NCBI GenBank assembly: GCA_965226065.1
Contig: OZ245332.1
Location: 98,206 to 162,205 of the forward strand
Direction of reading: 5' to 3'
DNA: 64,000 bases
Source: Spirochaetia bacterium
Lineage (GTDB): Bacteria > Spirochaetota > Spirochaetia > WTKD01 > G963693115
The position numbers and the translations under genes are program-made. The notes beneath the pieces are model-generated. The model had not been told where the DNA came from, searched no databases, and saw only the letters and a list, made by a program, of their open reading frames with translations. Shown piece by piece: positions 576 to 21,848 of the stretch (positions are counted from its first letter, which is position 1; every line of letters begins with the position of its first letter).

Positions 576-926
576 ATGGCAGAAGATAATACAAACAATC
601 TCATATCTCATAAAAGCGAAGTTTCAACAAGAAGTCAATTAGCGACTTTTTTGTTATGTACCTTCCTTGGATTTTTCGGTGCACATAGGTTGTATGCAGG
701 TAAGATAGGCTCAGGTATTACAATGATGCTCTTGATAATTGTTTTTGTACCGCTATTATTATTTTCTACAGATGCGGTGCAATCACAAGATGAAGCTTCT
801 TTTGGAGCTCTATTATCTTTAGCCGCAGGTGCTGTTGTAGTTCTTTGGATTATTATTGATTGGTTTGTAATACTTACAGGTAATTTTAAGGATAACGAAG
901 GGAAGAGAATACAAAAATTATTGTAA
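576..926 (+). CDS. TM2-domain membrane protein
   Basis: 116 aa with two hydrophobic helices and a GAHRLYAGK motif typical of the TM2 (G-x-H-R-F/L-Y) domain. Confidence 0.65.
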   Translation: MAEDNTNNLISHKSEVSTRSQLATFLLCTFLGFFGAHRLYAGKIGSGITMMLLIIVFVPLLLFSTDAVQSQDEASFGALLSLAAGAVVVLWIIIDWFVILTGNFKDNEGKRIQKLL

Positions 927-929
927 TAC

Positions 930-1145
930 ATGAACATTGAAGCATCACTAAACACCAATTTTCACAAAGCGAAAAGTAACAAAAAAGACGAATTCTACAC
1001 GCAACTTTACGACATTGAAGAAGAGCTTAAACACTACAAGGAGCATTTCAAAGGCAAGGTCGTGTACTGCAACTGCGGAGTCATGGGCGTACCGATTACC
1101 TTTCTCGACAAGTACAACCCCGACCAGTTTGAGTTGTTGGGATAG
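930..1145 (+). pseudogene. N-terminal fragment of an EcoRI-like N6-adenine DNA methyltransferase (truncated remnant)
   Basis: The 71-aa ORF reads HKAKSNKKDEFYTQLYDIEEELKHYKEHFKGKVVYCNCG. From memory this resembles the N-terminus of M.EcoRI-family adenine methylases (HKAKK..DEFYTQ...VYCNCD). The ORF stops after ~70 aa, where a full enzyme is >300 aa. Confidence 0.4.
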
Positions 1146-1262
1146 ATAGACCTTTGATTAAAGAACGCACAGGAAAAGTTAGTCGCTTTAGGATTAATGA
1201 TAAGGAAATCTACGCAAGAATCATCATCAAGAACAAGAGACTCTCTTCTTAGGAGGCACAAC

Positions 1263-3812
1263 ATGAGCCAAGACACCATACAATTTCACCTTAGAAGAGC
1301 AGGGCGTTATTACAAAGAAGGCAAATACGAAAAGGCGATAAAAACGCTTACATTGATTATCAATTCAGACGCACCAGATGACATCAAGGCAGATGTATAC
1401 AACAACAGAGGACTTGCCAAATACGACTTACAGAGGTACGAGGAAGCGATAGAGGATTATGACAAGGCGATAGAACTACAGTCCGACCATGTTGAGACAT
1501 ACAACAACTTCACCAAGCTTGATCGCAAAGATCCCGCCGAACTACAGCTCAACTATGCAAATGCATACAACAACAGAGGCGCTGCCAAAGAAAAATTACA
1601 GAGATACGAAGAGGCGATAGAAGATTACGACAAGGCGATAAAACTACAGCCCAACCATGCCGCAGCATATAACAACAGAGGCAGTGCCAAAGGAGAATTA
1701 CAGAGATACGAGGAAGCGATAGAAGATTACGACAAGGCGATAAAACGAAAGCATGACTATGCAGATGCATACTACAACAGAGGCAATGCCAAAGGAAAAT
1801 TACAGAGACACGAGGAAGCGATAGAAGATTACGACAAAGCGATAGAGCTACAGCTTGACCATGTTGAGGCATACTACAATAGAGGCAGTGCCAAAGGAAA
1901 ATTACAGAGATACGAGGAAGCGATAGAGGATTACGACAAGGCGATAAAATTACAGCCCAACCATGCCGCAGCATATAACAACAGAGGCAATGCCAAAAAC
2001 AGCTTACAGAGATACGAGGAAGCGATAGAGGATTATGACAAGGCGATAGAAAGACAGCCCAACCTTGCAGATGCATATAGCAACAGAGGCGCTACCAAAG
2101 ACAAATTACAGAGATACGAAGAAGCGATAGAGGATTACGACAAGGCGATAGAAAGACAGCCCGACTATGCCGAGGCATGGTACAACTGTATAAAAAATGC
2201 TACAAAAGAGTTAGAAGAAAGACAGCCCGACTATGCCGAGGCATGGTACAACAGAGGCAATGCCAAACGTAGCTTGGGGAGGTACGAAGAGGCGATAGCG
2301 GACTACGACAAGGCGATAGAACGAAAGCATGACTATGCAGATGCATACAACAATAGAGGCGCTACCAAAGACAAATTACAGAGATACGAGGAAGCGATAG
2401 AAGATTACGACAAGGCGATAGAACGAAAGCATGACTATGCAGATGCATACAACAACAGAGGACTTGCCAAAGCCAAATTACAGAGATACGAAGAGGTGAT
2501 AGAAGATTATGATAAGGCGATAGAACTACAGCCCGAAGATGCCAATGCATGGTTCAACAGAGGCAATGCCAAAAACAACTTACAGAGATACGAGGAAGCG
2601 ATAGCGGATTACGACAAGGCGATAGAGTTACAGCCTAAGCTTGCCGAGGCATACAACAACAGAGGCGTTGCCAAATACGACTTACAGAGGTACGAAGAAG
2701 CGATAGAAGATTACGACAAGGCGATAGAGCTACAATCCGACCATGCAGGTGCATACCGCAACAGAGGCAATGCCAAATACGACTTACAGAGATACGAAGA
2801 GGCGATAGCGGATTACGACAAGGCGATAGAGCTACAACCCGACCATGCAGGGGCATACTACAACAGAGGCGTTGCCAAAGCCAAATTACAGAGATATGAA
2901 GAGGCGATAGCGGATTACGACAAGGCGATAGAGCTACAGCCTAATCTTGCCAATGCATGGTTCAATAGAGGCAATGCCAAAGGCAGCTTACAGAGACACG
3001 AAGAGGCGATAGCGGATTTTGACACAGCGATAGAATTACAGCCCGACTATGCTAAGGTATACCACAACAGAGGCGTTGCCAAACATAGCTTGGGGAGATA
3101 CGAGGAAGCGATAAGGGATTACTACAAGGCGATAGAGCTACAGTGTGAGAACGCAAAGAAAGACTTTAAAACAATAACATGCTATAAGTTCATCCCCATT
3201 AGCAAAAACAGCATAAACATGCTGGTAAAAAACATGGTGTATTTTAGCGATGTTCCGTCCCTGAACGACCCGCTGGAATGCCCTCTTTTGTTAACAATAT
3301 TTCAGGGCGTATTTGAAGGCAAACATGAACCGCGTATTTTCTCACTCGTGGTTCCACCTCCCAATGACAAACCAGATGAGTATGGGATACATGAGGTCGT
3401 ACGCAACACACTCCTTTTCAGCCACTATGCAGATGCGCACAAGGGAATATGCATAGGGTACGAAATAGCTCCAGAGTTTCTGCAACAAGGCACGATGTTC
3501 TATACACCTGTGCAATATAGCAAGAATACAATACCAGATAGCCTGGAGAAGCTCTTTGCCATTAAGGATGAGCTATGGAAATATGAGCATGAGGGGCGTT
3601 TTGTAGCCTTTGGCACAGAGAAACACTATCAATTGCAAGGGAATTCACGCATTACAAGGCTTATCTTTGGGCTTAAAACACCTGGAAAAGACAAGACTTT
3701 GTTGTCGAAACTTCTACAAGGTAAAGGAATAGGCTTATATGATACCTACAGTGATGAATATAGTTCTTTTGATCTCAAGTTTAAGGTTCGCAAACAATCT
3801 CATATCTCATAA
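1263..3812 (+). CDS. TPR-repeat protein with C-terminal DUF2971 domain (paralog 1, roughly 18-19 TPR units)
   Basis: AGGAGG RBS 7 nt upstream of ATG 1263; the ORF-track start at 1197 is probably too early. The N-terminus MSQDTIQFHLRRAGRYYKEGKYEKAIKTL is homologous to MTQGIE..NRATRYRKEGKYEEAI of paralogs 2 and 3. Long array of 34-aa units (AYNNRGNAKxxLQRYEEAIEDYDKAIELQP). The C-terminal ~230 aa carry DUF2971 hallmarks: LVKNMVYFSDVPSLNDPLECPL, LLFSHYADAHKGICIGYEI and LWKYEHEGRFVAF. The last codons (KQSHIS) derive from a copy of the TM2 gene 5' end. Confidence 0.85.
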   Translation: MSQDTIQFHLRRAGRYYKEGKYEKAIKTLTLIINSDAPDDIKADVYNNRGLAKYDLQRYEEAIEDYDKAIELQSDHVETYNNFTKLDRKDPAELQLNYANAYNNRGAAKEKLQRYEEAIEDYDKAIKLQPNHAAAYNNRGSAKGELQRYEEAIEDYDKAIKRKHDYADAYYNRGNAKGKLQRHEEAIEDYDKAIELQLDHVEAYYNRGSAKGKLQRYEEAIEDYDKAIKLQPNHAAAYNNRGNAKNSLQRYEEAIEDYDKAIERQPNLADAYSNRGATKDKLQRYEEAIEDYDKAIERQPDYAEAWYNCIKNATKELEERQPDYAEAWYNRGNAKRSLGRYEEAIADYDKAIERKHDYADAYNNRGATKDKLQRYEEAIEDYDKAIERKHDYADAYNNRGLAKAKLQRYEEVIEDYDKAIELQPEDANAWFNRGNAKNNLQRYEEAIADYDKAIELQPKLAEAYNNRGVAKYDLQRYEEAIEDYDKAIELQSDHAGAYRNRGNAKYDLQRYEEAIADYDKAIELQPDHAGAYYNRGVAKAKLQRYEEAIADYDKAIELQPNLANAWFNRGNAKGSLQRHEEAIADFDTAIELQPDYAKVYHNRGVAKHSLGRYEEAIRDYYKAIELQCENAKKDFKTITCYKFIPISKNSINMLVKNMVYFSDVPSLNDPLECPLLLTIFQGVFEGKHEPRIFSLVVPPPNDKPDEYGIHEVVRNTLLFSHYADAHKGICIGYEIAPEFLQQGTMFYTPVQYSKNTIPDSLEKLFAIKDELWKYEHEGRFVAFGTEKHYQLQGNSRITRLIFGLKTPGKDKTLLSKLLQGKGIGLYDTYSDEYSSFDLKFKVRKQSHIS

Positions 3813-3972
3813 AAGCGAAGTTTCAACAAGAAGTCAATTAGCGATTTTTTCGGTGCACATAGGTTGTATGCAGGTAAGATAGGCTCAAGTATTATAATGA
3901 TACTCTTAATAATTGTTGCAGCAGGGTTTTATACCGCTATCATTATTTTTTACAGATGCGGTGCAATCAGAT
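3796..3972 (+). repeat. Degenerate second copy of the 5' part of the TM2 gene (matches 597..790), fused to the 3' end of TPR-DUF2971 paralog 1
   Basis: 3796..3846 is identical to 597..647 (caatctcatatctcataaaagcgaagtttcaacaagaagtcaattagcga). The rest matches 660..790 with a ~20-bp deletion and point differences. Confidence 0.7.
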
Positions 3973-3997
3973 GCATAAACAAGAAGATACAGAAAGA

Positions 3998-4030
3998 TGA
4001 AAAAAGCCACACAAACATGTGGCTTTGAGT
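3998..4030 (-). terminator. Rho-independent terminator downstream of the minus-strand Mrr-like gene
   Basis: Stem agccaca (4005..4011), loop caaaca, stem tgtggct (4018..4024). On the minus strand the stem is followed by TTTTTTCATC (complement of 3998..4004). Confidence 0.5.
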
Positions 4031-4074
4031 TTAAAGAATTTTCACAGCTCCTTAAGCGGATATTTCAAATGTCG

Positions 4075-5004
4075 TTAAAAAAGTAATTCAGGAGCGTGAT
4101 TTATGACAAATAGCGCCAAATCTTCATGAGCTAATAAATCAATAGGCTTTCCAAACTCATCAGATTTTTCATCAATCTCTTTTTCTATCGTCTCTGTGCT
4201 TTCGGCAGTGGTAGCTATTATTCCTCCATGTGCATCGTAATGCTCTATTGCGCCTACAATCTGTTCGACTGCATGTGTATTCTCTATTCTTCCTTCATAA
4301 GATTTTACTTGCACAACGATCAAATGTGGATATTCTATATTATTCGCTATTTTGATGTTCGTCTCTATAATTAGATCTGCCCCATGATCCGTACCCCAGC
4401 CTACTTCATTAAGTGTTACATCTTTTACATCGGGAACTTTTTTAAATACCTTATATAAAAATTCCTCAAGGTTTTTACTCTTATTCATTTGTTGAATCTT
4501 TACAGCGATATTGCTTAGCATGGGGGTCAGTTCTTTTTTGAGATGATGTATTTCTCTCGTCTCTCCGCCTTCAAGTTGTATCTTATTACTTTTTAAGTTC
4601 TCTATAGATTCATGAAATGCGTCTTCCGCACGTATTCTTTGAAATCTTTGTCGAGGTTTCAGATTAACTGTGGGTAGAACATTTGCATTCTTTCTATCAA
4701 ACTCTATCACCGTACTGGTATCAACTTCAAAGTAATGCGGAAAGGCACTAGTTTTCTCTCCAAATTTATATTCTGACGTAATTCTCGCAGCGGTACAGTG
4801 TCCTTTCCGTGGTGAATTGATAAACACGATCCAATCATCTTTATGTACTTGACGAAGACGTTCAAAATATTGATATGGTTCTTTTGGGATTCCTTCCTCC
4901 CCAGCATGTATTCGTACTGTTCCTTCATGCATCCAATCTTTGATTTGTTCTCTAATTTCGTCCTTGCATCCTTTCCATGATGCCCCAACTGACCATACTG
5001 CCAT
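4075..5004 (-). CDS. Restriction endonuclease-like protein with C-terminal Mrr-cat (PD-(D/E)xK) domain and an N-terminal domain of unknown type
   Basis: The C-terminal GWGTDHGADLIIETN....HLIVVQVKSYEG fits the Mrr catalytic-core pattern (DGGIDG...D..I...IQAK). The ~130-aa N-terminal region was not recognised. Confidence 0.5.
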   Translation of the reverse strand: MAVWSVGASWKGCKDEIREQIKDWMHEGTVRIHAGEEGIPKEPYQYFERLRQVHKDDWIVFINSPRKGHCTAARITSEYKFGEKTSAFPHYFEVDTSTVIEFDRKNANVLPTVNLKPRQRFQRIRAEDAFHESIENLKSNKIQLEGGETREIHHLKKELTPMLSNIAVKIQQMNKSKNLEEFLYKVFKKVPDVKDVTLNEVGWGTDHGADLIIETNIKIANNIEYPHLIVVQVKSYEGRIENTHAVEQIVGAIEHYDAHGGIIATTAESTETIEKEIDEKSDEFGKPIDLLAHEDLALFVINHAPELLF

Positions 5005-5253
5005 AATTCTTACCTCCTACATATAACATATATAAATTATTTGGAAATCAATTTTCAACAAAGGGTTAAATCTAAAATCCATACCATGCACTATAGCAAA
5101 ACCTAGCGTCTTATGCAAGTACACAAGGTCTAATATCCCTTTACTTAATACATAATGTCATAGATACATTGTGTCGACACTTGAGATACGCTCACAAGTT
5201 TTCTCGGGACATGTAGCGTCCTACAACAGAGACATGTATATGATCACGCAAGA

Positions 5254-6501
5254 TTACATTGTATCTCGCGTGGCTCCGAAACTCAGCAAGTACTCACGAT
5301 AGTACTCGTACTGTGCTCTGCGTGCCTTAAGTTCTGCAGGCAAGCCGATGCTTATGTCGTTCACTAAGGCGTCAAACTTGTCTAAAAGAGACACAATGCG
5401 TTCTTGCACAGGTAGGGGAGGTATGGGGATGGTGAGTTTAGCAACATCTTTTGAATAAACATGAGGAACTCCGCTTCCGCTTTTAAGATTGTGTAATACA
5501 TTTTGACAGTTTTTTAAAAAATGAAAAGCATATTTTGTAAGCAATAAACATTTATTTGTTTTTATTGAAAAGGCATCTGATACAAAAATTTCGGTCGTCC
5601 AATAACTAACAAAACCCGCATACGCACCGCTTCCCGCAATTACAATTGTTTCGCCATCTCTATTTCCTTTGTTATGATAATAGGCCGCTTTTCTGCCACC
5701 TGCAATAACAGGGATGTCACCACTTGAAATATTTTTTTTAGTTATGGATGTTCCTCGCTTAAGTTCCGCAACTTCTCCCAACGCCCTCCACTCCACGTCA
5801 TCGCCAAAGGTGAGAAGCTTCTCACGGTAGTGCTTATACTGCGCTACGCGCGCCTCAAGCTCCGCCTCAAGCTCCGCCTCAAGCTCCGCCTCAAGCTCCG
5901 CCTCAAGCTCCGCCTCAAGCTCCGCCTCAAGCTCCGTGAATGTGTCTAGCACGCCTACAATGTACTCTTGCACAGGTAGGGGTGGTATGGGGATTAGATA
6001 TTTTTTTATATCGTTAAAATTAACTGATGAAAATGTTGCACCAGAAGCTTTACTGGCAAGTACTTGTCCATGTATTTGCATAATATGAAAAAGATATTTG
6101 CTTATAACTTTTTTAGTAGCTTGTATTCCACATAAACCTCTGCCTATACAAATTTTTCTATCAGTATAATTTATTGCCCCTACAGGTGCTCGAACACTCA
6201 TTATTACGTTATGAGCTTCTATAATTTTTGTTATTTTAGAAGTATGCTTTTGAGAGTTAGCAACAACATAGTTAGTAAAATGGGATTTTCCTTGATGAAA
6301 TTCTAAATCATTTTTGTTTGATGAAACAAACTTACCTTCTGGAGATTGTCCCATTATAAGATTAAAGTAATTTATATCCCCCAGCGCTCTATACTCCACC
6401 CCGTGCGGGCAGTGCTCGGCCATCAGCCGTTCCAGCGTATTCATAGTGCACTCATGATGGTTCGCCAATAATCCCGCATAGTCCCATGATATCATGCACA
6501 T
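5254..6501 (-). CDS. hsdS: Type I restriction-modification specificity subunit HsdS (copy 1; TRD-A + TRD-B), with 7 tandem ELEA repeats in the central spacer
   Basis: Two-TRD architecture. Conserved central and C-terminal segments: IPIPPLPVQE...LD.FTELEA...RVAQYKHYREKLLTF and IPIPPLPVQERIVSLLDKFDALVNDISIGLPAELKARRAQYEYYREYLLSF. Seven 12-bp units (cctcaagctccg) at 5853..5936 encode (ELEA)7. No hsdM or hsdR in the window. The start may really be at the MNTL... methionine rather than MCMIS.... Confidence 0.85.
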   Translation of the reverse strand: MCMISWDYAGLLANHHECTMNTLERLMAEHCPHGVEYRALGDINYFNLIMGQSPEGKFVSSNKNDLEFHQGKSHFTNYVVANSQKHTSKITKIIEAHNVIMSVRAPVGAINYTDRKICIGRGLCGIQATKKVISKYLFHIMQIHGQVLASKASGATFSSVNFNDIKKYLIPIPPLPVQEYIVGVLDTFTELEAELEAELEAELEAELEAELEAELEARVAQYKHYREKLLTFGDDVEWRALGEVAELKRGTSITKKNISSGDIPVIAGGRKAAYYHNKGNRDGETIVIAGSGAYAGFVSYWTTEIFVSDAFSIKTNKCLLLTKYAFHFLKNCQNVLHNLKSGSGVPHVYSKDVAKLTIPIPPLPVQERIVSLLDKFDALVNDISIGLPAELKARRAQYEYYREYLLSFGATRDTM

Positions 6502-6708
6502 GTGTTGGAAGAGACATAGACATGTGTTGAATTGTACACTATTTATATATAACTCCCTTAATGTATCACAATGGTCTTAAATGAATTCCTGCATATTTAA
6601 TAATTTGAGGTTTACAAATGGATTTACATGTATCACGGCAACCTGTCTTTGACCTTTTAAAGTACATTCATCGGTCTATGGGCTATACTCAAACGTAAGG
6701 AGCATCGC
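6502..6708. promoter_or_regulatory. Conserved divergent intergenic leader between hsdS and the TPR-DUF2971 gene (copy 1 of a ~185-bp near-identical element; copy 2 at 13408..13592; partial third copy 15870..15911)
   Basis: 6540..6708 is near-identical to 13420..13592. It ends in ...ggctatactcaaac(g/a)taaggagcatcgcATG, a TATACT -10-like hexamer followed by an AAGGAG RBS. It presumably holds divergent promoters for both genes. Confidence 0.45.
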
Positions 6709-8661
6709 ATGACTCAAGGCATAGAATTGAACTTCAATAGAGCGACACGATATCGCAAAGAAGGCAAATATGAAGAGGCGATAGAAACGCTTACATTGAT
6801 TATCAAATCAGACGCACCAGATGACATCAAGGCAGGTGCATACTACAATAGAGGCGTTGCCAAACACGACTTAGAGAGATACGAGGAAGCGATAAGGGAT
6901 TACGACAAGGCGATAGAGCTACAGCCTAAGCTTGCCGAGGCATACAACAACAGAGGACTTGCCAAACACGACTTAGAGAGATACGAGGAAGCGATAGCGG
7001 ATTACGACAAGGCGATAGAACTACAGCCTAAGTTTACCGAGGCATGGTACAACAGAGGACTTGCCAAATACGCCTTACAGAGGTACGAGGAAGCGATAGC
7101 GGATTACGACAAGGCGATAGAACTACAGCCTAAGCTTGCCGGGGCATACAACAACAGAGGACTTGCCAAACACGACTTAGAGAGATACGAGGAAGCGATA
7201 GCGGATTACGACAAGGCGATAGAGCTACAGCCTAAGCTTGCCGAGGCATACAACAACAGAGGCAATGCCAAACGTAGCTTGGGGAGATACGAGGAAGCGA
7301 TAAGGGATTTCGACAAGGCGATAGAGCTACAGCCCGACTATGCTAAGGCATACAACAACAGAGGACTTGCCAAACACGACTTAGAGAGATACGAGGAAGC
7401 GATAGCGGATTACGACAAGGCGATAGAACTACAGCCTAAGCTTACCGAGGCATGGTACAACAGAGGACTTGCCAAATACGCCTTACAGAGGTACGAGGAA
7501 GCGATAGCGGATTACGACAAGGCGATAGAACTACAGCCTAAGCTTGCCGGGGCATACAACAACAGAGGACTTGCCAAACACGACTTAGAGAGATACGAGG
7601 AAGCGATAGCGGATTACGACAAGGCGATAGAGCTACAGCCTAAGCTTGCCGAGGCATACAACAACAGAGGCAATGCCAAACGTAGCTTGGGGAGATACGA
7701 GGAAGCGATAAGGGATTTCGACAAGGCGATAGAGCTACAGCCCGACTATGCTAAGGCATACAACAACAGAGGACTTGCCAAACACGACTTAGAGAGATAC
7801 GAGGAAGCGATAGCGGATTACGACAAGGCGATAGAGCTACAGCCTAAGCTTGCCGAGGCATACTACAATAGAGGCAATGCCAAATACAAATTAAAAAGAT
7901 ATGAAGAGGCGAAAGACGACCATCATCAGGCAATTAAGCTGCAATGTGAGAATGCACAAGAAAAATATAAGCCCATAACAAGCTATAAGTTCAGACCCAT
8001 CAATAAAAACACCATAAGCCTTTTGGTACAAGGTGAATTATATTTTAGCGATATTCCATCCCTGAACGACCCGCTGGAATGCCCCCTGATGCACTTCATG
8101 TATAAAGATATATTCAAAGATGCCAATAAGCCGCACATTTTGTCACTGGTTGTCCCCTCTCATCAACATACAAAAAACAAAGACGGAATATATACGGATC
8201 TGGTAAACAACACCTTGCTCTTCAGCCATTATGCTGATTCACACAAGGGCATATGCATAGAATACGAAATACAAGAAACACTATTAAAACAAGAACAAGC
8301 ACGCATATTCTACACCTCTGTACAATACAGCACAAACACAGAAGCACAAAATATTGAAAAACTCTTTGCCATTAAGGATGAAAAATGGAAATACGAGAAC
8401 GAAGCGCGCTTTATAGCCTTTGATGAGCAACAAGAGCCAACACGCCCGGGCAACATATATAAAGGTGGTGTGCACATTAAGAAAATAATATTCGGACTTG
8501 AAACGCCTAAGGAAGACAAAAAGCTATTGTACACCCTCTTGCACAAAGAAAACAAAGAACATTTACAAGGCATAAAGTTTTTTAACACAGAAAGCAAACC
8601 CAAAAGCTTTTTCACCCTGAAGTTTACGCCGTATACACCGCCAGACCAGGTTGGTTCATAA
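6709..8661 (+). CDS. TPR-repeat protein with C-terminal DUF2971 domain (paralog 2, roughly 11-12 TPR units; contains a perfect ~408-bp 4-TPR tandem duplication)
   Basis: Same unit structure as paralog 1. The C-terminal domain reads LLVQGELYFSDIPSLNDPLECPL, LLFSHYADSHKGICIEYEI and KWKYENEARFIAF. The 6937..7344 segment is repeated at 7345..7752 almost base for base. Confidence 0.85.
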   Translation: MTQGIELNFNRATRYRKEGKYEEAIETLTLIIKSDAPDDIKAGAYYNRGVAKHDLERYEEAIRDYDKAIELQPKLAEAYNNRGLAKHDLERYEEAIADYDKAIELQPKFTEAWYNRGLAKYALQRYEEAIADYDKAIELQPKLAGAYNNRGLAKHDLERYEEAIADYDKAIELQPKLAEAYNNRGNAKRSLGRYEEAIRDFDKAIELQPDYAKAYNNRGLAKHDLERYEEAIADYDKAIELQPKLTEAWYNRGLAKYALQRYEEAIADYDKAIELQPKLAGAYNNRGLAKHDLERYEEAIADYDKAIELQPKLAEAYNNRGNAKRSLGRYEEAIRDFDKAIELQPDYAKAYNNRGLAKHDLERYEEAIADYDKAIELQPKLAEAYYNRGNAKYKLKRYEEAKDDHHQAIKLQCENAQEKYKPITSYKFRPINKNTISLLVQGELYFSDIPSLNDPLECPLMHFMYKDIFKDANKPHILSLVVPSHQHTKNKDGIYTDLVNNTLLFSHYADSHKGICIEYEIQETLLKQEQARIFYTSVQYSTNTEAQNIEKLFAIKDEKWKYENEARFIAFDEQQEPTRPGNIYKGGVHIKKIIFGLETPKEDKKLLYTLLHKENKEHLQGIKFFNTESKPKSFFTLKFTPYTPPDQVGS

Positions 8662-8860
8662 ACTCTACATGTGTTAAAAGAGACACGGAGCGATGCCAAC
8701 AGAGAGACGGAAACGCCCCCCACCCGACATGTCCATGTCTTTGGTATCTCTGGTAGCCATCAAAACCTGACTTTACACAAAAAAACCCCTGATGACTTGA
8801 TTATGTAAAAGGCCGTGTTATGATAACATTCAGTAACATTTAATCAACAAGGAGTAAACC

Positions 8861-9776: not shown

Positions 9777-9787
9777 AGGAGGAACAC

Positions 9788-9915
9788 ATGGCTATAGAAT
9801 ATAAAGTCATTCCACGCAAGATATTGGCGGGAGAAGACAAAGGCAAAGTAAAATACTACGCCACAACAAGCAACACCGGACGAACAGACCTTGATGACTT
9901 TATAAATATTATTCA
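9788..9915 (+). pseudogene. Possible truncated HU-like (Bacteroidetes-type histone-like) DNA-binding protein N-terminus
   Basis: AAGGAGG RBS, then MAIEYKVIPRKILAGEDKGKVKYYATTSNTGRTDLDDFINI resembles the N-terminus of Bacteroides-type HU-family proteins. The rest of the ORF overlaps the opposite-strand ImmA gene and looks non-coding. Confidence 0.25.
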
Positions 9916-10398
9916 GATTCCAAGTCGTATAGACATTGCTCCAAATGAAACATCGAATTCATTTGCTAAAATATGGGCAAGTTCTGCATGGAATCCCAGG
10001 TCAAAACATTCTATATAATGGTTGGCTCTCTCTTTAACCTTGTGAAGGGGCATTATTATATCAGCTGCCAGCTTATTAGCTTGAATTTCCTGATTGTTGC
10101 TTAGCAAGCTTCTGTATAATGGATCGTCAAATATCCCATCTCCTATGCTTTCCTTATGCAAGAAAAAATGGGCAAGCTCATGGGCTAGTGTAAATCTCCT
10201 CCGTTGAGGGGAATGCTTTAAATTTATAGTAATTCGGTAATTGTCGTTTACCTTCACTATCTTGCCAGACATCTCTCCCATATATTCATTTTCAACATCA
10301 ATATTATTATCCTTTGCAATACTTTCAAGATTAACAGGGTAGGAGTCAAGATATTTTTCTTTCAAACTTTTTGCGATATCCAGTCTATTGCTGTCCAT
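9913..10398 (-). CDS. ImmA/IrrE-family (DUF955) zinc metallopeptidase
   Basis: HExxH in LAHELAHFFLH, plus the downstream LAAD.IMP context typical of ImmA/IrrE anti-repressor proteases. Confidence 0.7.
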   Translation of the reverse strand: MDSNRLDIAKSLKEKYLDSYPVNLESIAKDNNIDVENEYMGEMSGKIVKVNDNYRITINLKHSPQRRRFTLAHELAHFFLHKESIGDGIFDDPLYRSLLSNNQEIQANKLAADIIMPLHKVKERANHYIECFDLGFHAELAHILANEFDVSFGAMSIRLGI

Positions 10399-10401
10399 TT
10401 G

Positions 10402-10845
10402 TCACTCCTTATTCACTTTTTTAGCATCATCAACATCAGAAGTACTTAATGCGTAAATATCGCCCGCCTTCATTCTTTCGTTTGTCTTTTTCATTACTTC
10501 CTCTACTATGGAATCTGTTTTATTTTTAATAAAGTCATCAGCTTTCCTATTTATGATTTCAGTTACTTTTGAATTTATTTCTTGCCAACCGATGATAGCC
10601 AGGATTCCGCCACCCATTGTTATGGTCGCTATAATTATTCCCAGTAAAGATATTTGAAAACTTAAAGCGTCAACATTACTGAGGTTTTCTGAATTCGCAA
10701 ACTTGAAAAACCCAAATACAATAAGTAGCAAGAAAAAAGCTCCAATCACAACAAGAAAAAATGTTAAAATGAGTATTAAAACTCCAGATTTTGGTTTACC
10801 TTCAGCTTTTTTGACTTTTTCTTTATTCCCCGGAGAACCAACCAC
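10402..10845 (-). CDS. Small membrane protein (2 predicted TM helices), co-directional and 3 nt upstream of the ImmA-like gene
   Basis: Two long hydrophobic stretches (VLILILTFFLVVIGAFFLLLIVFGFF and LLGIIIATITMGGGILAIIGW). No HTH motif recognised. Confidence 0.45.
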   Translation of the reverse strand: MVGSPGNKEKVKKAEGKPKSGVLILILTFFLVVIGAFFLLLIVFGFFKFANSENLSNVDALSFQISLLGIIIATITMGGGILAIIGWQEINSKVTEIINRKADDFIKNKTDSIVEEVMKKTNERMKAGDIYALSTSDVDDAKKVNKE

Positions 10846-10904
10846 TTATCTATTATGACACAGGTATCTAAATATAACAACAATATGCTGTATAAAATCT
10901 TTTT

Positions 10905-11394
10905 CCTCCATGAACCGCGTATTTTCTCACTCGTGGTTCCACCTCCCAATGACAAACCAGATGAGCATGGGATACATGAGGTCGTACGCAACACACTTCT
11001 TTTCAGCCACTATGCAGATGCGCACAAGGGAATATGCATAGGGTACGAAATAGCTCCAGAGTTTCTGCAACAAGGCACGATGTTCTATACACCTGTGCAA
11101 TATAGCAAGAATACAAGACCAGATAGCCTGGAGAAGCTCTTTGCCATTAAGGATGAGCTATGGAAATATGAGCATGAGGGGCGTTTTGTAGCCTTTGGCA
11201 CAGAGAAACACTATCAATTGCAAGGGAATTCACGCATTACAAGGCTTATCTTTGGGCTTAAAACACCTGAGGAAGACAAGACTTTGTTGTCGAAACTTCT
11301 ACAAGGCAAAGGAATAGACTTATATGATACCTACAGTGATGAATATAGTTCTTTTGATCTCAAGTTTAGGGAACACGGGGCAACATCTTTTTGA
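10905..11394 (+). pseudogene. Truncated copy of the DUF2971 C-terminal domain (about 97% identical to residues of paralog 1; no TPR region and no N-terminal NDPxE segment)
   Basis: 10911..11375 encodes EPRIFSLVVPPPNDKPDEHGIHEVVRNTLLFSHYADAHKGICIGYEI...LWKYEHEGRFVAF.... This is near-identical to 3334..3790, but with a different 3' end and unrelated upstream codons. Confidence 0.7.
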
Positions 11395-11502
11395 CAAAGG
11401 CTTTGCAGGCAATTGGTTTGAGCCCCACCAATGGGCCTATGGTAGACGATGAACATTTATTCTATGCAGCTTGGACTCTTAGTATCTTGATCACGCCCTA
11501 GC

Positions 11503-11847
11503 TTAGTCTTTCCAACTGTACAGCGTCCCATCATCGCGTATCGCCACTGTGTGATCCCCACATGTCGCAACAGCATTCCATTTTTCGATCCCTACTTTGA
11601 CGGGACTAGTCTGATGCTTCATATGCCATAGTGTCCCATCATCGCGTATCGCCACTGTGTGATCCCCACCTGCCGCAACAGCCTTCCATCTTCCGATCCC
11701 TACCATGTTGGGACTAGTCTGATAATTACGCCCTTTCCAAATACACAGCGTCCCATCATCGCGTATTGCCACTGTGTGATCCCTACCTATCGCAACAGCC
11801 TTCCATCTTCCGATCCCTACCTTGTCGGGACTAGTCTGATAATTCAT
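11503..11847 (-). pseudogene. RCC1-repeat (beta-propeller blade) protein fragment
   Basis: Three near-identical blades: GIGRWKAVA.G.DHTVAIRDDGTL..WK (RCC1-like GxxHTVAL..DGxLxxWG). Only 114 aa with no upstream continuation, so likely a remnant. Confidence 0.45.
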
Positions 11848-12180
11848 ATGCCATCTCCTTTATAAAATAAAATTTGTGAAAGCTGCTTAATATACAAGCA
11901 ACATTTTCAATTATATAAAGTATAGAAAACAAAACACAATAATACAATAGGTAAAATTAAAATGTGATGCAAGCTTGTCCAAGAACCCCATTCCTAAGCT
12001 TCTGCCTACCATACGGAGATGCCCTTATCAGCATACCGTTCTAAGCAATACGCAATATGCCTTTGAACTTTAGGGCACAAGTCCAAGAAGTTTACTAAAT
12101 AAATTTTTAGAGACACCTAGTGATAGCCAACAGCGACACATAGCGTCCTACAACAGAGACATGTATATGATCACGCAAGA

Positions 12181-13407
12181 TTACATTGTATTTCGCGTGG
12201 CTTCGAAACTAAGCAAGTACTCACGATAGTACTCGTACTGTGCTCTGCGTGCCTTAAGTTCTGCAGGCAAGCCGATGCTTATGTCGTTCACTAAGGCGTC
12301 AAACTTGTCTAAAAGAGACACAATGCGTTCTTGCTCTGCAAGGGGCGGTATGGGGATAGAAAACTTATTTATTATTGAAGAATTTATATTATTGATAGTA
12401 GTGCTACAGATACTTTTTTTAAGATATTGCAAGAAATTACCGCTACCTAACAAATAAAAAATAAATTGAGAATTAATACTTTTATTACATCTTATAACTG
12501 CCATAAAGCCACCAAAGTAGTAATCTATATTGTTATTAATATATGCAACTTTTCCTACATGGGCTTTACTTCCACTTGCTACGCTCATAAGAATATCACC
12601 TTTTTTTAACTTTTGCGTATCTTTAATTTTGGTATCTTTAGACACAACTTTAACATCTTCAAAGTTTAATCTATTATTTAATATGTCAATATTATTCGCT
12701 CTTAATATTTTGAAACCACTGTTTAAAGTTGTTTCCTGCGATTTATTGTAAGTAACCCCTCGCACATATTTAGCAATTTCTCCTAATTCTCTATATTCCA
12801 CGTCATGGCCAAAGGTGAGCAGCTTCTCACGGTAGTACTTATACTGCGCTACGCGCGCCTCAAGCTCCGCCTCAAGCTCCGTAAAGCTGTCGAGTATCTT
12901 TACGATTGCTTCTTGCACAGGTAGGGGTGGTATGGGTATGGGCAGTTTGGCAACATCTTTTGAATAAACATGAGGAACTCCGCTTCCGCTTTTAAGATTG
13001 TGTAATACATTTTGACAGTTTTTTAAAAAATGAAAAGCATATTTTGTAAGCAATAAATATTTATTTGTTTTTATTGAAAAGGCATCTGATACAAAAATTT
13101 CGGTCGTCCAATAACTAACAAAACCCGCATACGCACCGCTTCCCGCAATTACAATTGTTTCGCCATCTCTATTTCCTTTGTTATGATAATAGGCCGCTTT
13201 TCTGCCACCTGCAATAACAGGGATGTCACCACTTGAAATATTTTTTTTAGTTATGGATGTTCCCCGCTTAAGTTCCGCAACTTCTCCCAATTCTCTATAC
13301 TCCACCCCGTGCGGGCAGTGCTCGGACATCAGCCGTTTCAGCGTATTCATAGTGCACTCATGATGGTTCGCCAATAATCCCGCATAGTCCCATGATATCA
13401 TGCACAT
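12181..13407 (-). CDS. hsdS: Type I R-M specificity subunit HsdS (copy 2; TRD-B + TRD-C), 2 ELEA repeats in the central spacer
   Basis: Identical N- and C-terminal conserved regions to copy 1. Its first TRD (GEVAELKRGTSITKKNISSGDIPVIAGG...AKLPIPIPPLPVQE) is the same sequence that forms the second TRD of copy 1; its second TRD is unique. Only two cctcaagctccg units are present. Confidence 0.85.
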   Translation of the reverse strand: MCMISWDYAGLLANHHECTMNTLKRLMSEHCPHGVEYRELGEVAELKRGTSITKKNISSGDIPVIAGGRKAAYYHNKGNRDGETIVIAGSGAYAGFVSYWTTEIFVSDAFSIKTNKYLLLTKYAFHFLKNCQNVLHNLKSGSGVPHVYSKDVAKLPIPIPPLPVQEAIVKILDSFTELEAELEARVAQYKYYREKLLTFGHDVEYRELGEIAKYVRGVTYNKSQETTLNSGFKILRANNIDILNNRLNFEDVKVVSKDTKIKDTQKLKKGDILMSVASGSKAHVGKVAYINNNIDYYFGGFMAVIRCNKSINSQFIFYLLGSGNFLQYLKKSICSTTINNINSSIINKFSIPIPPLAEQERIVSLLDKFDALVNDISIGLPAELKARRAQYEYYREYLLSFEATRNTM

Positions 13408-13592
13408 GTGTTGAATTGTACACTATTTATATATGATTCCCTTAATGTATCACAATGGTCTTAAATGAATTCCTGCATATTTAATAATTTGAGGTTTACA
13501 AATGGATTTACATGTATCACGGCAACCTGTCTTTGACCTTTTAAAGTACATTCATCGGTCTATGGGCTATACTCAAACATAAGGAGCATCGC
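13408..13592. promoter_or_regulatory. Second copy of the conserved hsdS/TPR divergent leader
   Basis: Near-identical to 6540..6708. Confidence 0.45.
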
Positions 13593-15512
13593 ATGACTCA
13601 AGGCATAGAATCGTACTTCAATAGAGCGACACGATATTACAAAGAAGGCAAGTATGAAGAGGCGATAAAAACGCTTACATTGATTATCAAATCAGACGCA
13701 CCAGATGACATCAAGGTAGGTGCGTACAACAACAGAGGACTTACCAAAGACAGCTTGGGGAGCTACGAGGAAGCGATAAGGGATTACGACAAGGCGATAG
13801 AGCTACAGCCCGACTATGCCGCAGCATACCACAACAGAGGACTTGCCAAAAACAGCTTACAGAGATACGAAGAAGCGATAAAAGATTACGACAAGGCGAT
13901 AGAGCTACAGCCCGACTATGCCAATGCATGGTTCAACAGAGGCGTTACTAAATACAACTTAAGAAGATACGAGGAAGTGATAGAGGATTACGACAAGGGG
14001 ATAGAACTACAGCCCGACGATGCTAAGGCATACCACAACAGAGGTGTTGCTAAATACAACTTAAAAAGATACGAGGAAGCGATAGAGGATTACGACAAGG
14101 CGATAGAGCTACAGCCTAAGCTTGCCGAGACATACAACAACAGAGGCACTGCCAAATACAACTTACAGAGATACGAGGAAGCGATAGAAGATTACGACAA
14201 GGCGATAGAGCTACAGCCTAAGCTTGCCAAGGCATACTACAACAGAGGTAATGCGTACCATGAGCAAGCACAATACAACAAAGCAATAGTAGACTACACG
14301 CAGGTCATTAAACTGCCCACAGATGATAACACCAAAGCAGGAGCGTATGCTGGCAGAGGTACTGCATACGCCAAGCAAAAAGAATACAACGAAGCAATAA
14401 ATGATTTCAATGCTGCCCTACAGTACGGCATATCCGATGAAGTTATAAAAACATATCGCAAGCAAGAAGAAAAGGGCATTGCTAAAAACATATTAGAAGT
14501 ATTTGAAAGCACGGCGCAGATATTAAACCAACTAAAAGTACCTAAAGATTCTAAAGACACAGAATATCTTTCGCATACTACTAGATTGCCCGTGTTTATT
14601 CAACTCCTTGTTCCTGCACATAAGAACGAAAAACAACCACTAGGGATCTTTCGTATGTACCACATTGCCTACACCAACGACCCAACTGAAGGCAGGGTCT
14701 TGTTCAATAATATGAATATACCCCTTGATGAAGCAACACAGGGTAGGGACATACCTTATGTGATGGTAACAAGCTTTTGTGGAGGTAAAAACCCACAAGC
14801 ATTAGACACCTTGCCCATATGGAAGATGTACGGCGATGATGCACAAGGCATAGGCCTGTTATTTAAGAAAAGCGACATAGCCTACGATAAAAAAGGACAT
14901 GCCATGCCACATTATTTTGAATCTACTATGCTTAGCGACACTGGAAATACCAATAAGAAAGTCACACATGCGACATCACAACCCTTGCCAAATGAAGCAG
15001 ATGAAAAGAATGTTACACCCCCACAGATACTCTACAAGGTCTACTATGTGAAGAGTGATGAAACAGATGAAACAAAGAGTGATGAAATATATGGAAAGTT
15101 AAAAGACATAAAAACAAATCTTGAGACGATACAGAAACAACAAGATATACACAACAAAACCCTAGAGTTGCTAAACGGTATACGGTATCTCATAAAAGAC
15201 ATAAAATATGCCTACGAAGAAGAATACCGCCTCTTGTGCTTTGCAAATAAGGAACAAGTCCCAAAGATACTACAAAGCCAAGACATCACAGAACAAACTG
15301 AAAGCACCAAAGACACGAATACGGGTAGTCTACCACGTATACGTATCTACATAGAGACAGAAATATTAAAAAAACTCTGCAAGGTAATAACCGCCCCTAA
15401 AGTAAATAAGGAACAAGCCTTAAACATACAGTATCTTTTGCATTTCTATAAGGAAGAATTGCCAAAGCTGGAAGAAGAACCCCTATATACCAGCAATATA
15501 CCCTACCGCTAA
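13593..15512 (+). CDS. TPR-repeat protein (roughly 7 units) with a divergent, insertion-containing DUF2971-like C-terminal domain (paralog 3)
   Basis: N-terminus MTQGIESYFNRATRYYKEGKYEEAI plus TPR units as in paralogs 1 and 2. The C-terminal domain has GIFRMYHIAYTNDPTEGRVLF (NDPxE motif) and KYAYEEEYRLLCF (W/YxYExE-R motif) with extra inserted sequence. Confidence 0.8.
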   Translation: MTQGIESYFNRATRYYKEGKYEEAIKTLTLIIKSDAPDDIKVGAYNNRGLTKDSLGSYEEAIRDYDKAIELQPDYAAAYHNRGLAKNSLQRYEEAIKDYDKAIELQPDYANAWFNRGVTKYNLRRYEEVIEDYDKGIELQPDDAKAYHNRGVAKYNLKRYEEAIEDYDKAIELQPKLAETYNNRGTAKYNLQRYEEAIEDYDKAIELQPKLAKAYYNRGNAYHEQAQYNKAIVDYTQVIKLPTDDNTKAGAYAGRGTAYAKQKEYNEAINDFNAALQYGISDEVIKTYRKQEEKGIAKNILEVFESTAQILNQLKVPKDSKDTEYLSHTTRLPVFIQLLVPAHKNEKQPLGIFRMYHIAYTNDPTEGRVLFNNMNIPLDEATQGRDIPYVMVTSFCGGKNPQALDTLPIWKMYGDDAQGIGLLFKKSDIAYDKKGHAMPHYFESTMLSDTGNTNKKVTHATSQPLPNEADEKNVTPPQILYKVYYVKSDETDETKSDEIYGKLKDIKTNLETIQKQQDIHNKTLELLNGIRYLIKDIKYAYEEEYRLLCFANKEQVPKILQSQDITEQTESTKDTNTGSLPRIRIYIETEILKKLCKVITAPKVNKEQALNIQYLLHFYKEELPKLEEEPLYTSNIPYR

Positions 15513-15911
15513 GTAGGAAATCCCGTACCCATATGCATTACCACAGACACAAGAATCACACAGAAGACTTGTTATACTTGTTACAAAGGAAGTGCTCATG
15601 AAACAACAAGCAAACCCGAAAGCCTTTTTACCCTAAAGTTCAGGCCAGGTTCGTTCAAAAAAAAAGTTCTAATTATTAGCATCAGTGTCGGAAGACATGA
15701 GCTATCTCTTTTATAACACCACTGTATCTACCTTTGGGGGATGTTTGAATTCTCTTTGGCAAGACCTGCGAATCACTTAAAAAGAATATGCATGTCTCTT
15801 TGGGATTTATACGATCGTTTCGTGTACCTTTGTGTCATAGAGGCATGACGCCTCAGCCTTGTTTAGCTATTCATCGGTTTATCGGCTATACTCAAACGTA
15901 AGGAGCATCAC

Positions 15912-16163
15912 ATGACTCAAGGCATAGAATCGTACTTCAATAGAGCGACACGATATTACAAAGAAGGCAAGTATGAAGAGGCGATAGCGAATTATGACAA
16001 AGCGATAGAACTACAGCCCGAAGATGCCGATGCATGGTTCAACAAAGGAACAAACAGCATTATGATTATGATAGAACGACAAAGCATGGGGAAACCGAAG
16101 GTGCGTCTTTGTTATTGTATTTATCAAAATAGTCAAGAAATAAGCAGTATAGAATATTTATAA
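15912..16163 (+). pseudogene. N-terminal fragment (leader + first TPR) of a fourth TPR-DUF2971 family gene
   Basis: MTQGIESYFNRATRYYKEGKYEEAIANYDKAIELQPEDADAWFNKG, then unrelated sequence and a stop. It is preceded by a partial copy of the conserved leader (15870..15911). Confidence 0.55.
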
Positions 16164-16183
16164 GGTTAAGAAGTAATGGAATT

Positions 16184-16816
16184 ATGAAGTGTATTTTAAT
16201 GTTTTGTTATGCGGGTCTCATTGTGCTTCTTGCTTCTTGTAGATCTGTGGCAACTTATACAGATAGTCCAGATGGTCAATTTTTTTATTCAGTGAGTAAG
16301 CAGGAAGAAACGAAATATGGTGATATTTTTGTTGTTATTGAAAAATATCGTTATTATCCGGTCTTTTTTAGTCAAGTAGAGCGTATGTTTTATGAAATTA
16401 ATCAAGCGAATCCTTTGGATGGCTATCATGCAAATACTTATAATTTTATACAATATAAGGGTTTTCGAGGCTCACAAATTGAATGTAAAATCAACGTAAG
16501 TCAAGTGGGACTTATAATTACTTACACACTGCCTAAAATTAGTGCGGATGTAAGGGATAAAAAAATCTTAAAAATTTGGAATAGATATTATTCCGCTTTA
16601 CTAAAGCATGAGCAAAATCATGCTGAGTTTGGTCGCATTGCAGCCAAAAGAATATACGATGTGTTGAGAAAAAACTTAAATAAGCCATGCGAGCAAGAAA
16701 TGCAAAAAGAAATTGATGAAATTTTTGCGTGGCATGCTAAACAACATAAAGAATATGATGAAAAAACGAATCATGGGAAAAAAGAGGATGCGTATTTGCC
16801 ATTTTATTTACCTTAA
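16184..16816 (+). CDS. Secreted lipoprotein with HExxH-type motif (HEQNH), DUF922/COG5661-like predicted Zn-peptidase
   Basis: Signal peptide and lipobox (LLASCRS). LLKHEQNHAEFGRIAA resembles the HEQGH motif I recall for DUF922 proteins. The gene sits between duplicated copies of the 3' end of paralog 3. Confidence 0.5.
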   Translation: MKCILMFCYAGLIVLLASCRSVATYTDSPDGQFFYSVSKQEETKYGDIFVVIEKYRYYPVFFSQVERMFYEINQANPLDGYHANTYNFIQYKGFRGSQIECKINVSQVGLIITYTLPKISADVRDKKILKIWNRYYSALLKHEQNHAEFGRIAAKRIYDVLRKNLNKPCEQEMQKEIDEIFAWHAKQHKEYDEKTNHGKKEDAYLPFYLP

Positions 16817-16839
16817 AATGAGAAGAAAGACATCACAGA

Positions 16840-17300
16840 ACAAACTGAAAGCACCAAAGACACGAATTATACGTATCTACATAGAGACAGAAATATTAAA
16901 AAAACTCTGCAAGGTAATAACCGCCCCTAAAGTAAATAAGGAACAAGCCTTAAACATACAGTATCTTTTGCATTTCTATAAGGAAGAAGAACCCCTATAT
17001 ACCAGCAATATACCCTACCGCTAAGTAGGAAATCCCGTACCCATATGCATTACCACAGACACAAGAATCACACAGAAGACTTGTTATACTTGTTACAAAA
17101 GGAAGTGCTCATGAAACAACAAGTAAACCCGAAAGCCTTTTTACCCTAAAGTTCAGGCCAAGTTCGTTCAAAAACAAAAAGTTCTAATTATTAGCATCAG
17201 TGTCGGAAGACATGAGCTATCTCTTTTATAACACCACTGTATCTACCTTTGGGGAATGTTTGAATTCTCTTTGGTAAGACCTGCGAATCACTTAAAAAGA
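16840..17300 (+). repeat. Degenerate duplicate of the 3' end and downstream region of TPR paralog 3 (matches ~15290..15800)
   Basis: 16856..17015 encodes ...RIIRIYIETEILKKLCKVITAPKVNKEQALNIQYLLHFYKEE..EPLYTSNIPYR, the paralog 3 C-terminus with small deletions. 17016..17300 repeats 15513..15800 (gtaggaaatcccgtacccatatgcattaccacagacacaag...). Confidence 0.7.
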
Positions 17301-18580: not shown

Positions 18581-18584
18581 CGCT

Positions 18585-20467: not shown

Positions 20468-20498
20468 AATAATTTCTCCTTATTTTGTTTTTTATGTA

Positions 20499-21830: not shown

Positions 21831-21848
21831 AATAATACTCTTCTTTTT

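Follow-up and report, generated by a model that had tools for sequence, protein, structure and literature searches.

A putative defense gene family with repeat arrays and DUF2971 domains in an hsdS-rich island of an uncultured Spirochaetia genome

DUF2971 has been predicted to be an ADP-ribosyltransferase (ART) domain of the HYE clade, similar to DarT and AbiGi (PMC12522546), and the DUF2971 protein Aristaios, a lactococcal plasmid product of 316 aa in which only this domain is annotated, has been shown to give an antiphage phenotype of the abortive-infection type (PMC11381338). Repeat arrays in which the units are strongly conserved, their number is polymorphic, and the binding face is under positive selection are known from fungal NOD-like receptors (NLRs) and have also been noted for bacterial NLRs (PMC4986451; bioRxiv 10.1101/2020.01.06.895854). 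In Helicobacter pylori, the Type I specificity genes hsdS undergo "domain movement" of their target recognition domains (TRDs) (PMC3077401). Here we analyze a 64,000-nt stretch of contig OZ245332.1 (positions 98,206 to 162,205; GenBank GCA_965226065.1), hereafter the window, in whose first ~23,400 nt lies a variable island of defense genes from an uncultured Spirochaetia genome. Within this island, which ends near 23.4 kb at the start of gap-pgk-tpi, three paralogous genes (par1, par2, and par3) encode arrays of tetratricopeptide repeats (TPRs) joined to a C-terminal DUF2971 domain. The repeat anatomy, the collinearity of the duplicated segments, the domain identities, the fold of the type-A domain, the hypervariable repeat positions, and the differences from related contigs are direct observations. 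From them, we propose that the family probably serves defense through a TPR sensor and an ART effector, with recognition altered by shuffling.

TPR arrays and DUF2971 domains of the paralogues

Gene identities were taken from Pfam and PADLOC profiles, and open reading frames (ORFs) were scanned over positions 1 to ~35 kb of the window. All three paralogues lie on the plus strand and retain intact ORFs of 639 to 871 codons amid the surrounding debris. par1 (1197..3812) encodes 16 regular TPR units (1389-3152) ahead of a DUF2971/ART-like domain of type A1; its true start is likely 1263 rather than 1197 (AGGAGG ribosome-binding site [RBS], MSQDTIQ...), and its leader is unlike that of par2 and par3. 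In par2 (6709..8661), the leader is followed by 11 regular TPR units and a DUF2971/ART-like domain of type A2; in par3 (13593..15512), 5 regular and ~2 degenerate TPR units stand between the leader and a long, divergent DUF2971 domain of type B. The last TPR unit and the DUF2971 domain are separated by ~10 to 25 residues, and no nucleoside triphosphatase (NTPase) family is among the Pfam matches listed for the paralogues (for par2, the best 25 of 34 families). The par1 array also carries two small scars, a 66-nt partial-unit insertion near 2181-2257 that duplicates ERQPDYAEAWYN and a degenerate TPR unit at aa 99 to 120.

To compare the repeats, 32 regular units, representing 29 different DNA sequences, were placed in the Pfam TPR register. 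The units are TPRs of 34 aa (102 bp) with a DNA identity of 79 to 87% (Tandem Repeats Finder [TRF]). By amino acid entropy, the most variable positions are 2, 5, 9, 12, 13, 15, 22, 33, and 34, and seven of these nine are exactly the positions (2, 5, 9, 12, 13, 33, and 34) that form the variable concave ligand-binding face of TPRs (Magliery & Regan, PMC1261162). Units share 83 to 88% identity in the scaffold versus 22 to 41% at these a priori concave positions. The ratio of nonsynonymous to synonymous differences (pN/pS) is 2.40 at the concave set (pS 0.195, pN 0.470) versus 0.22 at the other 27 codons, the latter indicating purifying selection on the scaffold, and none of 20,000 random seven-position sets reached the pN of the concave set. 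Circularity is avoided by the use of a position set defined in the literature. With their unit identity, repeat-number polymorphism, and hypervariable binding face, the arrays fall among the "highly internally conserved" repeat sensors. An initial annotation of the window had proposed that the locus is under diversifying selection. The change at the concave face speaks for this, but the claim stands only in part, since the abundant gene debris at the locus fits neutral turnover of a defense island as well as it fits selection.

Codon usage within the units shows a further regularity. The third base is fixed in codons 5 and 9 (C and T, respectively, each in 29/29 distinct units) and is T in 28/29 at codon 34. 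These codons (e.g., 6844-6846 and 6856-6858) vary freely at bases 1 and 2, and neighboring conserved codons are synonymously variable.

Scored as isolated domains against Pfam DUF2971 (PF11185; cutoff, 22 bits), par1, par2, par3, and an orphan gene fragment described below reached 22.3, 26.2, 24.7, and 22.4 bits, and the homologues P0003 and P0024 reached 36 and 30 bits. The PADLOC family PDC-S31, under which name no paper was found, matches par1 (E = 7.9e-26) and par2 (E = 3.7e-29) and matches the type-B protein par3 weakly (E = 3.7e-4). The type-A domain has a DarT/Tpt1-like ADP-ribosyltransferase fold, in agreement with the published assignment of DUF2971 to the DarT-like HYE clade (PMC12522546), and ADP-ribosyltransferase activity is predicted for it. 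Two motifs, W.YE.E.RF (ExE-like) and FSHYA, are invariant in 10 type-A sequences, with the Tyr of ART motif II and the ExE of motif III assigned by eye. Type B carries YAYE.EYRL, likewise assigned by eye; alignment of type B to type A with hhalign covered only the ExE region, at 11% probability, and the AlphaFold2 model of the type-B C terminus was unusable (pLDDT of 38).

The family is rare and lineage-restricted, with 22 matches among 5.8 billion proteins. In a scan of species-representative genomes, it was found at six loci in three uncultured Spirochaetia metagenome-assembled genomes (MAGs); other Spirochaetia MAGs carry two to three clustered copies, with both C-terminal types and freshly amplified TPR units. 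Joint Genome Institute (JGI) metagenome contigs scanned with an alignment of the leader yielded only distant TPR proteins (38 to 47% identity), and viral contigs scanned with the type-A domain gave no match. An exhaustive profile search returned 18,343 representatives at E values of ≤1e-3 and only 30 at ≤1e-30. N-terminal TPR arrays are present in 8 of 10 sampled long DUF2971 homologues, indicating that the TPR-DUF2971 architecture is widespread, and our literature search found no paper describing it. The homologue P0036 (1,456 aa) comprises DUF7814, an Eco57I/MmeI-type methylase, a TaqI_C specificity domain, a TPR array, and a C-terminal DUF2971-like domain, and thus joins an Eco57I/TaqI-type restriction-modification (R-M) enzyme to a TPR-ART module in one polypeptide.

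Two contigs from a related population, L002 and L014, allow the arrays to be compared between orthologues. L002 is 89 to 97% identical to the window at the nucleotide level in shared pieces. Its par1 orthologue, P0001, has 3 regular TPR units versus 16 in par1; it combines a leader of the par2/par3 type with the C terminus and downstream flank of the orphan DUF2971 fragment at 10909 (L002 10601-11726 versus window 10909-12031, 90.6% identical), which shows that the orphan fragment occupies the ancestral site. P0001 sits between two of the three hsdS genes in an hsdR...hsdM operon of L002 that is interrupted by other defense genes. The par3 orthologue of L014 has a type-B domain 88% identical to that of par3 and ~11 regular units versus 5, and it adjoins orthologues of the Mrr (88% identical) and GmrSD genes of the window. 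It is split (8830-11248) into a 395-aa TPR ORF and a 415-aa C-terminal ORF overlapping by 17 nt; at the 2.1x coverage of this contig, the split may reflect either a genuine frameshift or a sequencing error. Between orthologues, terminal TPR units correspond (97 to 99% identical) and internal units do not, as expected for unequal crossing-over within arrays. These differences in unit number, together with unit-level duplication, bear out the initial claim that TPR number diversifies, and the locus is not identical in related genomes, as the initial annotation had anticipated.

Repeat relationships and the hsdS-linked module

The repeats were checked by self-BLAST of the window, by a more sensitive restricted BLAST, and by base-level alignments. 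All five repeat relationships listed in the initial annotation reproduce with only small corrections, and all matches except that of a short par2-type remnant have E values of ≤1e-45 and are therefore not due to chance. What does not hold is the picture of many independent scars within the TPR gene family: the repeats are better described as a few nested duplications of an hsdS-linked module, with replacements and decay. Matches between 3324-8630 and 10909-15646 keep the same order at similar offsets (6.9 to 7.6 kb), namely 7585 for the DUF2971 3' half, 6927 for the hsdS 3' end, 7509, 7005, and 6945 inside hsdS, 6906 for the hsdS 5' end, intergenic region, leader, and first TPRs, and 7016 for the par2-type 3' end. 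As the orphan fragment, the par2-type remnant, the hsdS similarity, and the leader similarity are all collinear, one tandem duplication of a ~7-kb module is the simplest history. The ancestral module would have consisted of a type-A1 DUF2971 3' half, a spacer, hsdS, a promoter, and a leader-TPR gene, its copies now occupying the two intervals above.

Later replacements in the module copies would have affected the spacers, the hsdS recognition domains, the TPR arrays, and the C-terminal domain. Copy 1 has a shortened second TM2 copy (TM2') and an Mrr gene as its spacer; in copy 2, the spacer holds an RCC1 fragment. In par3, the type-A C-terminal domain would have been exchanged for type B, and the last ~13 type-A codons, which lie downstream of the type-B par3 stop, are direct evidence of such a C-terminal cassette replacement. 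This par2-type remnant (15608..15646, plus strand) had been reported in the initial annotation and was recovered as the weakest of the five relationships (39 nt, 84.6% identity, E = 2e-6 in the restricted comparison). It matches 8592-8630 of par2, recurs at ~17121-17159, shares the diagonal of the other matches (offset 7016), and translates to TSKPESLFTLKFRP, with 11/15 residues identical to the par2 C terminus TESKPKSFFTLKFTP.

The orphan itself (10909..11394, plus strand) is the 3' half of a type-A1 DUF2971 gene. The abrupt start of homology at 10909 rather than 10905 and an identity of 98.1% rather than 97% amend the initial annotation in detail, with the match itself standing: 3324-3786 and 10909-11371 agree at 454/463 positions and without gaps. 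Its ORF (10855-11394) begins with 18 unrelated codons ahead of the DUF2971 sequence, and the fragment retains the ancestral C terminus and downstream flank. The native C terminus, ...DLKFR(K/E)H.AT.F, is kept in the orphan and in P0001. In par1, the native 3' end is replaced from 3791 by sequence derived from an upstream TM2 gene, so that, as proposed, its last six codons (KQSHIS) and stop (3810-3812) lie in TM2-derived sequence. The intact TM2-domain gene (576..926, plus strand; Pfam TM2 E = 5e-13) supplies the source of this direct repeat in its 5' part, and self-alignment reproduces the reported bracket around a 3.2-kb block, pairing 592-785 with TM2' at 3791..3969 on the plus strand (BLAST 79% with gaps, E = 1e-50). 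Substitutions leave 161/169 positions identical (95.3%), including all of the first 54 nt; the 35 gap columns are made up of one deletion of 24 nt, one insertion of 10 nt, and one more gap of 1 nt. Both a tandem duplication followed by deletion and recombination with the upstream TM2 gene fit this bracket.

A nested duplication would then have carried par3 and its downstream flank to 15869-17315, where the gene body was later replaced by a DUF922 gene. The initial annotation had seen both ends of this copy, and both were found again. At the 5' end, a leader plus partial TPR stump (15869..16163, plus strand) was identified by alignment to the leaders; over 15869-15987, identity is 96.6% with the par3 leader and 93.3% with the par2 leader, and in the stump ORF the junction between the first half-repeat of the leader and the second half of a regular TPR falls precisely on the conserved YEEAI motif. 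At the 3' end, 16827..17315 (plus strand) repeats the last ~77 par3 codons and ~290 bp downstream (15280-15800). BLAST identity is 91.8% only owing to 17-nt and 18-nt deletions, and substitution identity is 99.0% (481/486). This second copy is frameshifted and starts 11 nt past the stop codon (16814-16816) of the DUF922 lipoprotein-like gene (16184..16816, plus strand; Pfam DUF922 E = 1e-26; lipobox-like N terminus), which occupies the expected body position of the duplicated par3, as had been noted.

Within par2, four TPR units are duplicated in frame (408 bp; two copies, 6937..7752, plus strand; TRF period of 408, 2.6 copies). The tandem duplication is as first annotated, except that it is not perfect: 406/408 positions are identical, the differences being at 6937 and 7033. 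The period-408 identity run covers 6938-7427 and continues to 7835. Substitution identities of 95.3% for TM2, 95.5 to 97% for hsdS, 98.1% for DUF2971, 99.0% for the par3 copy, and 99.5% for the TPR duplication are graded and give a relative order of these events. The 2 to 5% divergence of most copies shows that they are recent rather than current, and the ongoing change and gene conversion put forward in the initial annotation are not supported. The family is mosaic, with a promoter and leader 96.6 to 98.5% identical between copies joined to unequal TPR arrays and two very different DUF2971 subtypes. Cassette shuffling, as the initial annotation interpreted the locus, therefore survives in the mosaic family, the C-terminal replacement, and the change in TPR number, but not in the many separate events.

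The minus-strand genes beside par2 and par3, which went unnoticed in that annotation, are Type I hsdS genes. hsdS1 (5254..6501; Pfam Methylase_S E = 7e-45; PADLOC Specificity_I E = 6e-99) is divergent from par2, and hsdS2 (12181..13407; Specificity_I E = 3e-91; Methylase_S) is divergent from par3, each pair sharing an intergenic region of ~200 bp. Methylase_S is found twice per protein, and a two-TRD layout with conserved helical regions is readable in the translations, as in Type I HsdS. TRDs are ordered A-B in hsdS1 and B-C in hsdS2, and TRD-B is 97% identical between position 2 of hsdS1 (5401-5796) and position 1 of hsdS2 (12910-13305). A perfect 12-bp repeat coding for LEAE is present 7.2 times in hsdS1 (5851-5936) and 2.2 times in hsdS2 (12856-12881) (TRF). 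In EcoR124-type enzymes, the number of such central repeats sets the length of the target spacer. The seven LEAE copies of hsdS1 form an unusually long, slippage-prone tract. A complete Type I R-M system was not found: tblastn of the 64-kb window with HsdR and an HsdM fragment of L002 recovered neither hsdM nor hsdR, which could lie upstream of position 1.

The conserved hsdS ends are likely to be recombination substrates, and together with the shared promoter and leader they would act as homology handles for duplicating and recombining whole modules. The shared divergent intergenic region, RBS, and leader (6502..6790, plus strand) are 98.5% identical to the region upstream of par3 and 94.8% identical to L002. 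A scan of 6400-8900 for promoters and terminators performed no better than on shuffled sequence. Copies of the par2 upstream region stand before other genes in L014: the hsdS1-par2 intergenic segment 6493-6660 recurs there at 14915-15081 before GmrSD (92% identity), and a remnant is found at 11693-11772, past the stop of a minus-strand Mrr gene. This segment behaves like a reusable promoter or recombination cassette.

Other genes of the island

Between the TM2 gene and par1 lies a fragment of an EcoRI-like adenine methyltransferase (MTase) gene (930..1145, plus strand), with 71 aa of a 345-position profile (Pfam EcoRI_methylase E = 7.5e-27, profile positions 1 to 40 only). The Mrr_cat-family restriction endonuclease gene of the copy-1 spacer is at 4075..5004 on the minus strand (Pfam Mrr_cat E = 1e-9). 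The copy-1 tail of the duplicated module is filled by two minus-strand genes (9913..10845), one for a CapP-like M78 peptidase (9913-10398; PADLOC E = 5e-28) and one for a 147-aa membrane protein (10402-10845). The pair is conserved beside a family member in L001/L009 (L001 16595-17600) and was found near TPR-DUF2971 and DUF285 genes in two different genomes. In copy 2, the RCC1-repeat gene fragment (11503..11847, minus strand) contains a 117-bp tandem repeat (3 copies, 80% matches) and has its syntenic counterpart in a 113-aa ORF that follows P0001 in L002. Exact-sequence look-ups of the Mrr and DUF922 proteins of the window gave no match.

Downstream of the par3 copies, a gene encoding GmrSD_N and an HNH nuclease (17495..18580, plus strand) is another defense gene of the island. 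It is followed by DUF285/Big_2 surface-protein genes (18585-22739) with 75-bp tandem repeats (20601-21330 and 18720-18967). DUF285 fragments also lie inside the island (8830-9776), so that the locus houses another repeat-rich gene family that rearranges. A minus-strand gene for a stand-alone TPR protein of 153 aa (22847-23308) marks the island edge just before the gap-pgk-tpi operon.

Proposed mechanism, alternatives, and known systems

From the gene anatomy we infer a role in defense, an enzymatic activity, a sensor-effector logic, and selection as the cause of the repeat diversity. The N-terminal TPR array would act as the sensor and the C-terminal DUF2971 domain as the effector. By analogy, binding of an invader-derived protein or peptide in the TPR groove would license the fused ADP-ribosyltransferase, by releasing or activating it, to modify nucleic acid or protein and so stop the infection (abortive infection). 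Unequal recombination at the level of units would change TPR number, and change at the concave face would yield sensors of different specificity, the two together retuning recognition.

Several points weigh against this proposal. No experiment ties any TPR-DUF2971 protein to defense, PDC-S31 is a candidate family only, and the Pfam DUF2971 scores are marginal (22 to 26 bits where 22 is required). The contrast in pN/pS derives from recombining paralogous units and is not a formal test, and relaxed constraint at a surface also raises pN. In L005 (8639-10684), from another Spirochaetia MAG, ~12 TPR units are 91% identical even at concave positions, which looks like amplification without diversification and is apparently very recent. 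The hsdS genes may be orphans because hsdM and hsdR are missing from the window. A single duplication is the most parsimonious history, yet gene conversion between older copies gives the same picture, and the window may itself derive from a metagenome assembly.

A possible, though less probable, explanation of the locus is neutral turnover in a recombination-prone junkyard, where unequal crossing-over, duplication, and deletion would be driven by the conserved hsdS ends and the 102-bp TPR units, leaving the paralogues and fragments behind as decaying by-products that owe nothing to selection for new specificity. The debris is what such turnover would leave (the MTase fragment, TM2', pieces of DUF285 and RCC1 genes, the leader stump, the orphan half of a DUF2971 gene, and the par3 3' end with its frameshift), the L005 array was amplified with almost no diversification, and the TRD-swapped hsdS genes offer obvious recombination homology. 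Decay fits poorly, however, with the persistence of three long intact paralogue ORFs and with the low pN/pS of the scaffold; replacements moreover cluster on the seven binding positions, where synonymous divergence is not raised. That the proteins serve something other than defense, as secreted or contact-dependent ADP-ribosylating effectors or as housekeeping TPR scaffolds in a variable region, is improbable. About 18% of DUF2971 proteins are predicted pathogen effectors (PMC12522546), and DUF285/Big_2 surface-protein genes flank the locus; yet inspection of the translations by eye, without a signal-peptide predictor, showed no N-terminal signal or lipoprotein-like sequence, the neighbors are hsdS, Mrr, GmrSD/HNH, and CapP-like M78 peptidase genes, the L002 orthologue is embedded in a Type I R-M operon, an R-M enzyme forms part of one homologue, and PDC-S31 profiles match.

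Mis-joins or collapsed and expanded repeats in the assembly are a very improbable source of the duplications and junctions. Repeat arrays are hard to assemble, the relatives come from low-coverage long-read metagenome assemblies, and the par3 orthologue of L014 (2.1x) is split into separate ORFs; the copies in the window nevertheless differ by 1 to 5% substitutions and specific indels and are therefore not assembler-made, neither the three long genes nor the 408-bp duplication breaks the reading frame, and the junction logic is coherent, with the flank of the orphan fragment independently confirmed by synteny in L002. Least credible is programmed diversification by a diversity-generating retroelement (DGR) or a site-specific recombinase shufflon. 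The NNC/NNT pattern of codons 5, 9, and 34 superficially resembles mutagenized AAY codons, but the adjacent codons AAC-6, AGA-7, and AAA-11 keep their adenines in 29/29 distinct units, and the ORFs examined (window 1 to ~35 kb) include neither a reverse transcriptase nor a recombinase. DGR-type mutagenesis was rejected on these grounds, as neighboring adenines never vary and the scanned ORFs include no reverse transcriptase. Shufflons typically combine several hsdS genes at a single locus, but here all repeats are direct, with no inverted-repeat pairs in 1-19,000; with no inverted repeats and both hsdS genes on the same strand, an invertible hsdS shufflon was likewise rejected.

The sensor-effector mechanism set out above can be extended to the hsdS genes, although we hold this extension to be doubtful. 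The hsdS-promoter-TPR-ART module would then be a functional unit in which a DNA-specificity subunit and an NTPase-less protein sensor with its fused DarT-like ART are co-duplicated and co-diversified from one divergent promoter. The R-M fusion in P0036 hints at such a coupling of R-M and TPR-ART functions. Were this so, the locus would represent a compact prokaryotic receptor-diversification system coupled to restriction-modification, with its sensor reprogrammed through repeat-unit shuffling as in fungal NLRs. Irrespective of this extension, the locus shows how conserved hsdS ends can be recombination handles that duplicate neighboring defense genes. The genome anatomy alone is ordinary, as defense islands and repeat genes are known as mosaics of duplications and debris. 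For a widespread and uncharacterized architecture, the analysis provides testable predictions in the form of specificity residues, catalytic glutamates, and strain differences in TPR number and content.

The closest known counterparts each share part of this anatomy. Like Aristaios and PDC-S31, the family combines DUF2971, with its predicted ART fold, and a neighborhood of defense genes; unlike Aristaios, it places DUF2971 after 5 to 16 near-identical TPR units, occurs as clustered paralogues of two divergent subtypes, and is known from genes alone. DarT, the toxin of DarTG and a single-stranded-DNA thymidine ADP-ribosyltransferase, and Tpt1/KptA share 6 to 10% sequence identity with the domain described here. 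DarTG differs in its regulation: no adjacent gene for the macrodomain antitoxin DarG was seen at our locus, where control would come from the fused TPR array. As in H. pylori hsdS domain movement and EcoR124 repeat variation, the two hsdS genes differ by a moved TRD and by the number of central 12-bp repeats; in contrast to both, hsdS is duplicated here along with an unrelated divergent defense gene, and the window contains neither hsdM nor hsdR. The array itself resembles the highly internally conserved TPR/WD/ANK arrays of fungal and bacterial NLR/STAND (signal transduction ATPases with numerous domains) receptors (HET-E/D family; Dyrka et al. 2014), with which it shares ~80 to 90% scaffold identity, repeat-number differences between close relatives, hypervariable sites on the concave face, and a proposed reshuffling of repeat units. 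Unlike in NLR/STAND proteins, no NACHT or NB-ARC NTPase domain is among the Pfam matches listed for the paralogues, and the TPR array, at the N terminus, directly adjoins the effector; a 42-aa TPR type is common in fungal NLRs, whereas the TPRs here are canonical 34-aa units. If the proposed mechanism is correct, the family would be a clear case of a bacterial immune sensor outside STAND/NLR that is diversified by shuffling near-identical repeats with a hypervariable binding face, and one directly joined to a DarT-like ADP-ribosyltransferase effector. The locus presents a known style of immune-gene evolution in an uncharacterized family, a DUF2971/PDC-S31-type candidate with an NLR-style repeat sensor in an hsdS-rich island.

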